Shown here: positions 1 through 3,000 of the stretch, in pieces
How the letters are laid out: each line of letters starts with the position of its first letter
Numbering within the stretch: position 1 is the stretch's first letter
From: a virus
Lineage: Duplodnaviria > Heunggongvirae > Uroviricota > Caudoviricetes
Reading direction: 5' to 3' (one strand)
Length of the DNA stretch: 4,586 nucleotides
Virus record (IMG/VR): IMGVR_UViG_2541047442_000023
Program-made: the position numbers

Positions 1-3000
1 AGGGGCGGCAGAGTTATCCGAATTGTAAAATTTGGTATCGTGCGCCATCTGTTTTCTCTGCTGGCGCAGCAGGTGCCAGTTGTTCAGGCTGACGGATGGA
101 TTGTAAACCAGAACGACCAGAAAAAACAAAACCCGCCGAAGCGGGTTAAGTGCGGGTGCGTTGAGGATGCCTGACACATCAGCGGTGGCGAGGGATTTCT
201 CCCCCGCCTGGTCTCTTACTCCTCAGGTTCGTAAGCTGTGAAGACAGCGACCTCCGTCTGGCCGGTTCGGATTCGTACCTCGCAGAGGTCTTTCCTCGTT
301 ACCAGTGCCGTCACTATGACGGTTAAACAGATGACGATCAGGGCGATTAACATCGCCTTTTGCTGCTTCATAACCTGCTTCTCCTTGCCTTTCGGCGCGT
401 AAGAGGCTAACCTACGTTTGTGAAGCATAGATTGGGCCTCAGATTAATGTTAAGCGTCTTGCAGGACGCGTAATGTTAACTGGGGCTTTTCTCTGTCTGC
501 CTTACGGTGGCATGCCCGAGGCAGACAGCCTCAAGCACCCGCAGCAATTCTACTTAACTCTCGCTTTACAGCAAACCGTTTTGCCCGATATGGGAATTCC
601 CATACGGAATGAATTCAGTTCCCCAGGCGCTCCATCAAAAACACAACCAGGCAGTAAACACCCACAACAGCAATAACAGCCAGAGCGCCTTCCATTACCA
701 GTGAAATATCATCCGACATATTCCCTCCCTTGGTGTGAATCCCGGCGAACGTTTTTACCCCCACCGACAAATAACATATACTAGAAAAGCAATAGCTATA
801 GCAACGCCTGCAAATGCATCTGGCCGGCTCATTGGTTCTCCCCCTGTGTCGCTTCTACTGCGATCTGACTGGCGTATTCGTTAATGGTAACGATAAGTTC
901 TTGCTCGGCCTCATCCAGACAACTACCGATACCTCGCCTGTCCACTTCAGAAGCATCGAAATCTGCACGAAGCCTGGCGACCTTCAGGATTGCGGACAAC
1001 ACCTCATCAGGGATTGCCGGAGAGTTGGTTGACGTTTCCGAGATTATCCGAAAATTATTGGTTGACGAACCCTTATTTTCCCGAAAGTTTCCAGCCTGAA
1101 GCATGGCGGCGCGGTGACACCAGATAATCCAGCCAAGCGCCATATCCCATGCCATGTAATCTCTATCGCCATTTTTTGCTCTGCGGCGATCTACAGATTC
1201 TCCGAAACGCTTCTCCATAAATAATTCATAGGCTGCTCGTTCATCCGATACTGCTGCCAGTGATGCCAGCGCAATCCGTGCCAGCTCTTCCGCTTCTTCT
1301 GCTGGAAGCACAACGTTGCTACCCGGTCCGTATGTTTCGCGCCAATGCTGGATTGTCAGCAGTCGATCTTTGGTAATAGTGGTCATAGCTATTTCACCTT
1401 AATCTCAACATTTCGCAGCTTTAGCTCTACTGGCATGTCTGACTTTCCTGTTAATGCTAATGCGAGATTTTCTGGAGTAATGAGAGCAGTTATTGTTTTC
1501 CCCATCGCCAGACGAATAATCATTCGTATTTCGCGATCGTCACATGCTCCTGGTCGAACAATTGATATTTGTCCGTTCATCTCACTCTCCTTTGATGCGA
1601 ATGCCAGCGACGCGTAATGCGTGTTCTAGGTCAATCAGGTAAAGCCAACTGCCATTTTCTTTAGGTATCATGACATGTCGCTCATCTGCATTTATCGGGT
1701 GTCCATATCGAAGGTCGTAGCGAGTCGGTAATTGAACTTCCCGCGCTTCCAGTTCAGCAATACGCTTGCTCCCATCAGAGATAACGCCTTCGTAATACTC
1801 ACGCTGCTCGTTGAGTTGTGATTTTGCTTCTTCCAGTCCATCCAGCAAATCAGCGATAATATCCGCTTCCCGATGACGGATGTGACGCTTAAACGCAGCA
1901 AGAGCCGCATCACAATCCCGTTCAGCATTTGGGCTGTCCGGGGTAGCCTGATACCACGCCAGCGTCGATTGATAGTTTTGTGCTGCCTCACGCAGTGCCT
2001 GATAGTCAATCTTGCCCACTGGCTGCCTCCTTTGCCGGGATTTCTAACTTTTGAGTGGTTGTATCAAATTCAAACAACTTAACCACGTCATCAAACAGGA
2101 CATAATCACCATCAGGATCTTCAGTCATATCAGCGCCACAATCCTGACCGCACGAGTCGCAACCTCCCATATCAAGCTCGTATCGCTTCAGGTTCGCGAT
2201 ATTTGATAAATTCAGCGCCAGTATAGCCAGATCATTAACCTCGTCTGCGATATACCCTGCACCATGTCCATACATTTCAATGCGGGATATGATTTCTTCT
2301 ACACGTTGTTTTGTGATCGTCATTTTTCTCTTCACTCCGATATACAAGGATTACTACACCCCCTCTGCTGATTGCGCGAGCTGGATCCCCTGGTTCCATG
2401 CCGTCAATTCCGAAGGCTTCGAAAAATGCATCTATTGCCTTTTGGCGTTGCTCCTGCTTACGGCGTTTATTCCATTTTTTCATGAACAACAGTGACAGCC
2501 ATCGTCCGCTGCAGAACATGATGTAGAAATAACCAAGGAGCGCTAGGCCGGTGTTCAGGGCTGTATCGATCGTTATCGTGGTGTTGATGTTCACTTCACA
2601 CCTCTCTGTTTGTTGATAAGTTCAATATCCTGCTGGCAACTGGCGCAAGCTCTGCATCCACGAACAGCCAGGCGTCGCCGCTCATCTATCGGATCGCCAC
2701 ACTCGCAACAATGAGTAGCAGATGGGGCATTACTATCGGATTTGTATTTTTGCAGGGAGAGATTGCGCTGCAATTCTTCGATTTCAGCGGCGTTGTCGAT
2801 GATATCTGCCATTTTCCTTTCCTTCAGGCATGAAAAAAGGAGCCGAAGCTCCTTTGGTTTTAGAATTCGAATTGCCTTGCCCGCAGGCTTTTCAGCATTG
2901 GTCTGGCCCGCTGAACTACGAAACTCGACTGGTCAAGCCGTGCCGCCTCTCTCAGTAGCACATCTCTGTTCTTCGTCACCATGTAGATGGTCTCAAACGC

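Follow-up and report, generated by a model that had tools for sequence, protein, structure and literature searches.

The hok/sok locus is the standard example of a type I toxin-antitoxin system, and hok, mok and sok are regarded as its full set of components. We analyzed a stretch of 4,586 nucleotides (nt) from a Caudoviricetes virus (IMG/VR record IMGVR_UViG_2541047442_000023; the whole of this stretch is termed the window below), in which a 34-codon open reading frame (ORF) on the minus strand, here called ORF-B (window 615-719), lies upstream of such a locus. Its closest described relative is ECs_5710, also listed as XECs145, of the Sp6 prophage of Escherichia coli O157:H7 Sakai, which belongs to the same family and is likewise situated upstream of mok/hok. 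ECs_5710 occupies a lambdoid nin region, whereas the window copy lies in a mosaic Sp5-like right arm near wrbA; the two products are identical at 32 of 34 positions (94%), the differences being V8A and E30D. Based on the evidence presented here we propose that ORF-B is a real gene for a single-helix inner-membrane peptide of a narrow Escherichia/Shigella family, and that it forms the upstream arm of the hokD-type hok/sok cassettes carried by lambdoid prophages, as a non-toxic accessory of hok, a reading to which we assign a probability of about one half.

Translation of the Sp6 paralog is already on record, since Hücker et al. 2017 (PMC5597208) list it as XECs145, with an over-long start, among 465 candidates. 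According to their S2 Table it reaches in lysogeny broth (LB) 79.1 reads per kilobase per million mapped reads (RPKM) for RNA and 346.1 for ribosome footprints, a ribosomal coverage value (RCV) of 4.35 and a coverage of 0.99; short annotated genes have in LB a mean RCV of 1.55. The corresponding values in brain heart infusion (BHI) are 121.3, 150.1, 1.14 and 0.84, and footprints are nearly nil under cold/osmotic stress (PMC5597208, S2 Table). The same study predicts an inner-membrane protein with one helix, for which its classifier returns the verdict 'real', assigns no function and leaves the linkage to hok unmentioned (PMC5597208). The ribosome profiling (Ribo-seq) check named in a first-pass annotation of the window, made from the sequence alone, therefore already has a positive outcome for a 94%-identical paralog (PMC5597208). 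A 63-aa gene located two genes upstream of XECs145 in the same orientation shows RNA RPKM of 25 and 19, which, with multi-mapping among the prophage copies as a caveat, hints at an extra promoter.

The exact window peptide is also annotated by PGAP, as the identical hypothetical protein WP_001278460.1, so that the first-pass description of the frame as untracked holds for the ORF track used there, from which it is absent, and not for public records. The peptide is found on at least 1000 contigs (UniRef A0A0K4ZJX7), and all 10 distinct places shown carry P, nin-type genes, a gene for a 187-aa protein, ORF-B, HOK_GEF, DUF968 and RusA, with Q present in 9 of the 10. Because ORF-B is both annotated and backed by published translation evidence, its existence is not new. 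Peptide strings gave no match in the main texts of the literature, the match having come from the supplementary tables of PMC5597208, and the peptide is absent from those parts of a preprint on small proteins of uropathogenic E. coli and of the Pro-SMP paper that were searched. What is apparently unreported in the literature searched is the strict association with hok, a widespread compact clade of the family that includes a copy on the Shigella virulence plasmid (pINV), and the enrichment of small membrane ORFs at the hok promoter. The first-pass annotation made no mention of the existing annotation, of a second small frame at 755-832 (ORF-A, below) or of the tight hok linkage.

The arrangement of ORF-B and the hok/sok locus in the window is as follows.

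615-719, minus strand: ORF-B (ATG 719-717, TGA 617-615), product MSDDISLVMEGALAVIAVVGVYCLVVFLMERLGN
723-731, minus strand: Shine-Dalgarno sequence AAGGGAGGG (contains GGGAGGG), 3 bases 5' of the ORF-B ATG
589-604, no strand assigned: TATGGGAATTCCCATA, a perfect palindrome of 16 bp located after the ORF-B stop and before the hok -35 element
547-574, minus strand: hok promoter as read from the sequence, with -35 TTGCTG (569-574), a 16-nt spacer and -10 TAGAAT (547-552)
366-540, minus strand: hok mRNA leader and sok region, matching Rfam RF01794 (sok/hok-leader) with 115 bits
about 420-490, plus strand: Sok RNA, by homology to the sokW annotation of phage 933W
216-428, minus strand: mok coding sequence
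216-371, minus strand: hokD-type hok, with PF01848 (HOK_GEF) matching the called product
130-147, minus strand: intrinsic terminator for hok transcription, with no other terminator lying between it and ORF-B

The frame, its ATG at 719 and its strong ribosome-binding site are present as first described, although a mechanical ORF list opens the same frame at an upstream TTG (615-770). Its length is by itself unremarkable, since 83 ORFs in the window reach 20 aa or more. More can be learned from the start signal, as GGAGG followed after 3-9 nt by ATG occurs three times on both strands of the window against 0.75 expected from shuffles, and the other two occurrences are the starts of an antirepressor gene (3489) and a ymdF-like gene (4479). 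The rarity of this combination, and its coincidence with real gene starts in the other two instances, argue that the ORF-B start is likewise a real signal.

The product contains a 19-residue apolar run, GALAVIAVVGVYCLVVFLM, with a mean Kyte-Doolittle value of 2.72 (grand average of hydropathy 1.40 for the peptide), and AlphaFold2, given a 10-sequence alignment, models residues 2-33 as one helix with a predicted local distance difference test score (pLDDT) of 90.9, both of which agree with the single-helix hydrophobic peptide of the first-pass annotation. The peptide has a net charge of -3 and no cationic flank, and ends 5 residues past the helix. With fewer than 50 codons, one predicted transmembrane helix and a translated paralog, ORF-B is an uncharacterized member of the small single-pass membrane proteins of prophages.

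Within the ORF-B family two types predominate. The main type (34 aa, beginning MSDD) was recovered from 674 of 5426 complete E. coli genomes (12%) at 1468 places. A search of a phage collection with the 34-aa query (tblastn) returned only three Escherichia phages, all mEp460-like, at 50-54% identity, and these led to the discovery of the compact type (first seen in phage mEp460; an example is 2495-2587 of L003), with 29-30 aa, the pattern MLVLKCALAI[AT]AVMAIYCLA[VI]VLMDRLSD and a GTG (or ATG) start behind AGGAGG. It is present in 1973 of the 5426 genomes (36%), yet no annotated feature lies under any of the 30 matches listed in RefSeq E. coli genomes. A 29-aa variant, MLVLKGTLAIAAVMTIYCLIVVLMERFSD, is that of pINV, including the copy of pWR100 that we examined, and Shigella accounts for 124 of the 144 plasmid records in which tblastn found a match; P0075, P0077 and P0083 are rarer variants of the family. 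A profile search of 1.84 billion representative proteins recovered only 27 cluster representatives, all short, and no larger proteins with the motif apart from mis-called extensions. A scan of GTDB species representatives found the family only in Escherichia ruysiae, although it used a single degenerate and narrow pattern, so that absence elsewhere is unproven. As far as seen in these sequence searches, the family appears confined to Escherichia/Shigella.

The pattern of sequence change in this family is that of a protein-coding gene. The compact frame is intact in 119 of 121 loci, and its nucleotide diversity at codon positions 1, 2 and 3 is 0.052, 0.021 and 0.100 as against 0.086 in the upstream non-coding DNA. 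Six diverged lineages share a 28-codon core without insertions or deletions and an identical stop codon position; all computable pairwise ratios of nonsynonymous to synonymous change (dN/dS) among them fall between 0.13 and 0.47, and the minimum numbers of changes at the three codon positions are 23, 10 and 32 (chi-square p = 0.0035). GGAG or GGAGG is kept upstream of the start in every lineage, and the core motif A-x-x-x-V-x-x-x-YCL-x-x-x-L is invariant in nine aligned variants, the following M-[DE]-R-L being kept in most. Between lineages the core retains 62-81% nucleotide identity as against 91-96% in the adjoining hok mRNA, which implies that the frame has outlived substantial divergence. 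The frame-conservation check named in the first-pass annotation thus came out in favor of the gene, the reading frame being kept across homologous regions. An RNA-element explanation was rejected: the region folds no more stably than shuffled sequence (z = -0.16), which makes RNA structure an unlikely cause of the conservation, and no Rfam family overlaps 615-760. Judged by these substitution patterns, ORF-B is a protein-coding gene under moderate purifying selection.

The placing of ORF-B between the gene array and the hok promoter in the first-pass annotation is borne out by the Rfam match at 366-540, which sets the +1 of the hok mRNA at 540, and by the promoter at 547-574, whose homologous site in phage mEp460 (TTGGCG-17-TAGAAT) was picked up by a promoter scan. 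This adjacency is not peculiar to the window. All 88 carriers of ORF-B with at least 400 nt of downstream sequence, mostly of the main type, possess the hok leader motif and/or the hok coding sequence, with the hok +1 located 74-76 nt after the ORF-B stop in the main type and 42 nt after it in the two compact-type sequences of this set. In the compact type 101 of 105 loci have the leader motif and/or hok, usually 42 nt past the stop, the remaining four having failed an exact-motif search for the leader. Four compact lineages place the ORF-B stop 8 nt from the hok -35 (TGA-N8-TTGGCG), while the main form seen in the window has a spacer of about 40 nt that contains the palindrome. Furthermore, the two most divergent variants that could be placed, in L220 (nin region) and L221 (next to higBA), each lie directly upstream of a HOK_GEF gene. 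The flanks of the pair fall into 5 (main) and 39 (compact) context clusters upstream of ORF-B and into 11 and 12, respectively, past the hok terminator; loci of the compact type share homology that starts about 175-225 nt upstream of ORF-B.

Adjacency to the hok promoter is hence constant across independent contexts, the known exception being pINV, in which the break falls inside the hok leader. In the pINV copies compared (L095, from pWR100, L096 and L097) the homology spans the upstream region, ORF-B and about 75 nt of the hok leader, and breaks before icsP.

1999-2088 of L095 (pWR100): intact compact-type ORF-B of pINV, with a decayed hok promoter/leader stub, about 290 nt ahead of the start codon of icsP; unannotated

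The pINV copy of S. dysenteriae 1617 has a C-terminal frameshift. Because the adjacency persists despite about 45 upstream contexts, we conclude that ORF-B and hok/sok behave as one mosaic module, of which ORF-B is the left arm.

Upstream of ORF-B in the window lies a second small hydrophobic frame, and the relevant features are the following.

755-832, minus strand: ORF-A, 25 aa (MSRPDAFAGVAIAIAFLVYVICRWG), with its own GGAG and an ATG that overlaps the TGA of a 185-aa gene (ATGA)
751-762, minus strand: GGGGG-TAA-AAAC tract at the ORF-A stop, in which a sixth G would fuse ORF-A and ORF-B into 74 aa
750-760, minus strand: left copy of a direct repeat, GGGTAAAAACG, overlapping the GGGGG tract
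577-586, minus strand: degenerate right copy, GGGCAAAACG, which is a perfect GGGTAAAAACG in other alleles

ORF-A lacks a PGAP annotation in the record examined. It is intact in 92 of 93 loci, with the ATGA overlap in all 92 even at loci with another gene in front (DUF551 or the 187-aa gene), and from this overlap it appears to be translationally coupled to the 185-aa gene. In phages of the Sp5/933W type it is ORF-A and not ORF-B that abuts the hok promoter. An alignment of loci with both frames (L252, L232) to loci with ORF-A alone (L225, L231, L253, L002) reveals the ORF-B segment as an insertion or deletion of about 174 nt bounded by the 11-bp direct repeat GGGTAAAAACG. A candidate homology between ORF-A and ORF-B was rejected (hhalign probability 3.1%).

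The occupancy of this position was also surveyed in 77 hokD-type loci (IMG/VR, L223-L302), which had been fetched with the Hok protein. Compact ORF-B is present in 13 of these, ORF-A together with ORF-B in 7, ORF-A alone in 13, and an unrelated 59-aa two-helix protein (MKNALQFLFVAFWLF...FMAVMCIEYWR) upstream of hok in 15. In 48 of the 77, accordingly, a small hydrophobic ORF with a Shine-Dalgarno sequence, from one of three unrelated families, ends 41-89 nt upstream of the hok +1. The linkage is asymmetric, in that the peptide is found with hok in nearly all loci and hok is often found without the peptide.

Taken together these features suggest how an accessory of hok might operate. ORF-B has its own GGGAGGG Shine-Dalgarno sequence for translation and would be expressed in lysogens. 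A terminator scan of the window found no terminator between ORF-B and hok, so that an ORF-B transcript must run through the hok promoter; this mRNA would end at the hok terminator and thereby yield a 5'-extended hok transcript. The peptide would insert in the inner membrane, where it might temper or assist Hok; alternatively, transcription and translation of ORF-B might shield hok from read-through that originates in phage genes upstream. The 589-604 palindrome was rejected as an intrinsic terminator, as it is not followed by a T-run; it is conserved across the main clade, has no counterpart in the compact clade, and could serve for protein binding or be a scar left by recombination.

Several observations weigh against a role tied to hok. 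Small hydrophobic ORFs with a Shine-Dalgarno sequence are lacking upstream of hok in 29 of the 77 loci, and there are hok/sok cassettes free of ORF-B in Sp5 and 933W, and likewise in plasmid R1, from which it follows that Hok does not need ORF-B. The gap from ORF-B to the hok promoter is very short, and the rarity of recombination within it could partly explain the linkage. On pINV ORF-B is kept although hok is truncated, which may point to a present or past role of its own. As to expression and selection, the Ribo-seq signal belongs to the paralog rather than to the exact window allele, its reads may be multi-mapped among near-identical prophage copies, and the purifying selection on ORF-B is moderate, not strong.

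The main rival is accordingly that ORF-B is an independent, lysogen-expressed 'moron' membrane peptide without a functional tie to hok, whose target lies in the membrane of the host or of an incoming phage, for example in superinfection exclusion or in the modulation of a transporter or sensor in the manner of AcrZ, MgtS and MgrB, and whose adjacency to hok arose from the way mosaic modules are cut. The intact ORF-B that persists on pINV after the loss of hok fits this alternative. Likewise in its favor, the Sp6 paralog is translated in uninduced cultures with RNA 3-6 times that of the same-orientation gene about 0.9 kb upstream, and 123 of 137 compact loci have a sigma-70-like TTGAnn-17-CATATT, a consensus match only, that ends about 34 nt ahead of the start and suggests that ORF-B has a promoter of its own. 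The stretch upstream of hok is also a hot spot for cargo, since DUF262, TPR or HigBA genes occupy it in different loci, and relBE in Qin of K-12 is a further example. Against this, none of about 200 loci, which represent about 45 upstream contexts, showed ORF-B without the hok leader, and ORF-B has no PADLOC or PHROGs match. Superinfection exclusion had been raised in the first-pass annotation, and nothing in our analysis points there. On balance we regard an independent function of this kind as possible but unlikely.

More tentative still is an extension of the preferred reading, under which hokD-type cassettes in general would be three-part modules, with an upstream membrane peptide (ORF-B, ORF-A or the 59-aa protein) co-transcribed into hok. 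The peptide could then be a protein-level partner of Hok, for instance one that confers immunity or attenuates Hok at the membrane, or alternatively part of a device that stops read-through of the phage early operon from firing Hok. Such modules would explain both the 48 of 77 loci with a small ORF at this position and the near-constant pairing of ORF-B with the hok leader; we nevertheless consider the generalization doubtful.

The first-pass annotation noted that small membrane peptides at prophage ends are often toxins or holin-like, and a new type I or self-contained membrane toxin with an unrecognized antitoxin would agree with the small size, hydrophobicity and single helix of ORF-B, with its position beside a classical type I system inside a prophage, and with its lack of homologs of known function. 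Comparisons of ORF-B, ORF-A and their fused form to Pfam, PHROGs, NCBIfam and PADLOC returned only background of the transmembrane type (E >= 0.001, far below the cut-offs), and ORF-B has no Pfam match, HOK_GEF (PF01848) included, at E <= 0.1. Homology to Hok was rejected for ORF-B (hhalign probability 2.1% over 11 columns) as well as for ORF-A (0.6%), the Hok profile having been built partly from sequences entered by hand; the statement that ORF-B belongs to no known type I toxin family is upheld by these results. The hydropathy and the predicted helix do make it a small hydrophobic membrane peptide of the type I kind. Type I toxins are, however, normally held translationally silent, whereas the ORF-B leader has no unusual structure that would hide its Shine-Dalgarno sequence (z = -0.16), and its paralog, with an RCV of 4.35, is among the better-translated small ORFs in growing Sakai. 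Scans of the window and of phage mEp460, representing both clades, found no sigma-70-like promoter or terminator antisense to ORF-B, although consensus scans can miss weak promoters. Sok stops more than 100 nt short of ORF-B, and the candidate pairing of Sok with the ORF-B initiation region was rejected, the duplex energy of -23.4 kcal/mol comparing with a shuffled mean of -28.1 kcal/mol. The net charge of -3, the want of a cationic flank and a sequence unrelated to Hok are further points of difference. The absence of an antisense RNA signal, the acidic charge and the high ribosome occupancy during growth together render a free-standing type I toxin improbable, and the earlier suggestion of a toxin is not sustained. 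The holin-like alternative fares no better: the neighbors of ORF-B are nin-region or early genes and hok, the lysis genes and Q lie further downstream, and there is no PHROGs holin match, so that a position outside the lysis cassette makes a holin role unlikely.

In another alternative the peptide itself is unimportant, and ORF-B is a cis-acting upstream ORF or stretch of transcribed DNA that sets how much transcription from upstream, whether from PR or from a promoter of its own, enters or occludes the hok promoter. The distance of 8 nt that separates the stop from the hok -35 element in four compact lineages, the lack of a terminator between ORF-B and hok, and the sharing of this position by three unrelated families of small ORFs (ORF-A, ORF-B and the 59-aa protein) in different phages are all consistent with such a role. 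Yet conservation is at the amino-acid level (YCL...LM(D/E)R motif, dN/dS below 0.5, second codon position best kept), and the ORFs found at this position all encode hydrophobic helices rather than arbitrary peptides, which leaves little room for a purely cis-acting function. Slighter again is the chance that ORF-B is a translated but functionless 'proto-gene' hitch-hiking with the conserved hok/sok. The confinement of the family to Escherichia/Shigella, with only 27 representatives among 1.84 billion proteins, the frameshifted pINV copy and occasional truncated alleles would suit this view; on the other hand frame, length, Shine-Dalgarno sequence and motif have all persisted through the divergence described above, in which ORF-B changed far more than hok, changes are spread non-randomly over the codon positions (p = 0.0035), and diversity within the clade is lowest at the second position.

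The GGGGG tract at the end of ORF-A could be a frameshift site, a site of phase variation or a source of sequencing error: it has five Gs in 93 of 93 loci, and the rare database proteins P0005, P0008 and P0009 are in-frame fusions of ORF-A and ORF-B, consistent with one extra G. That the two frames are halves of a 74-aa two-helix protein, joined by a -1 slip on G GGG G or separated by a frameshift, is very improbable, for although these three fusions are exact, GGGGG-TAA is invariant and, as read from the sequence, a -1 slip of glycine tRNA from GGG to GGG gives the exact P0008 junction, the fusion clusters have 5, 2 and 2 members against thousands of split-form contigs and could be homopolymer errors, the encoded W-G-stop codons also explain the invariance of the tract, ORF-B has a strong Shine-Dalgarno sequence and ATG of its own, and the compact clade has ORF-B without ORF-A just as Sp5 has ORF-A without ORF-B.

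The window as a whole is the right end of a Stx-phage-like prophage in wrbA, and its match to Sakai stops at the recorded end of the Sp5 prophage. It closes with a 5' stub of wrbA and a ymdF-like gene, both identified from their N-terminal sequences. The remaining features outside the ORF-B and hok region are these.

4479-4586, plus strand: ymdF-like gene, beyond the wrbA stub
4045-4107, minus strand: first 18 codons of wrbA, MAKVLVLYYSMYGHIETM, followed by phage DNA; prophage attachment junction
2860-3489, minus strand: AntA antirepressor gene, family library match
2591-2812, minus strand: TraR/DksA-like gene, family library match
2277-2594, minus strand: DUF4752 gene, family library match
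2006-2323, minus strand: unnamed gene of the array
1582-2019, minus strand: Ead/Ea22-like gene, family library match
1389-1580, minus strand: unnamed gene of the array
829-1386, minus strand: unnamed gene of the array

The window is a mosaic: positions 1-1275 match the nin region of an O157 prophage at 99.6% identity, while 1005-2604 and 2320-4586 match Sakai Sp6 and the right arm of Sp5, respectively, at 98.4% each; none of the complete E. coli genomes in our collection contains it whole, the best coverage being 59%. The first-pass placing of ORF-B at a prophage end needs correction, as the frame is about 3.3 kb inside the end and in most genomes occupies the nin region between P and Q.

Other elements were observed in the same stretch. 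A 31-bp unit, TGTTTGGGGCACTATTGGGGCAAAATGTGGT, is repeated in 2.8 tandem copies (96% matches) at 3852-3938, about 110 nt inside the prophage/wrbA junction, and these repeats may be putative binding sites for a recombinase or regulator. The non-coding DNA upstream of the antirepressor gene start matches Rfam sRNA-Xcc1 (RF02221) at 3530-3618 on the minus strand, with 69.1 bits against a gathering threshold of 53 (E = 1.4e-11). A weak Rfam match to isrK at 126-207 (minus strand, 27 bits against a gathering score of 50) overlaps the 3' end of hok and its terminator, and is probably due to the terminator hairpin.

The significance of ORF-B depends on what the peptide does. A translated, conserved membrane peptide that occurs only upstream of prophage hok cassettes would be a testable lead to an additional layer of control or immunity in this system. 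The family is also a common one, whose main type reaches 12% and whose compact type reaches 36% of complete E. coli genomes, with a copy on the virulence plasmid of Shigella as well, and it thus adds to the abundant small membrane proteins. For annotation it is of consequence that the compact 29-aa type is unannotated in the matches listed and that on pINV it falls within the regulatory region upstream of icsP. If ORF-B is an ordinary accessory gene the result is a tidier annotation, and greater interest would attach to it only should the peptide turn out to work together with Hok.

Among known systems, the type I toxins of the Hok/Gef, Ldr, TisB, Ibs, ShoB, Zor and DinQ groups resemble ORF-B in having fewer than 60 aa and one hydrophobic helix, ORF-B being prophage-borne and placed beside hok/sok. 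Unlike these toxins ORF-B is acidic rather than neutral or cationic, well translated in growth and free of an antisense RNA signal, and it lacks both the periplasmic Cys-containing tail of Hok and any sequence relation to it. Mok is a closer parallel in position, as it too is small, hok-proximal and in the same orientation, with an expression possibly coupled to that of hok. However, the mok and hok frames overlap within the hok mRNA, and translation of hok requires Mok, whereas ORF-B is confined to the DNA that precedes the hok promoter and +1, has no overlap with hok and is missing from many hok loci that function. The established small regulatory inner-membrane proteins of E. coli, namely AcrZ, MgtS, MgrB, KdpF, CydX and SgrT, share with ORF-B a length below 50 aa, a single transmembrane helix, a strong ribosome-binding site and translation in normal growth, and, as would be expected of ORF-B, they are not toxic at native levels. 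ORF-B differs from them in showing no sequence similarity and in being prophage-borne and linked to a toxin cassette instead of a chromosomal transporter or sensor operon. By analogy with these peptides, the most plausible working model is that ORF-B would bind a larger membrane protein and tune its activity.

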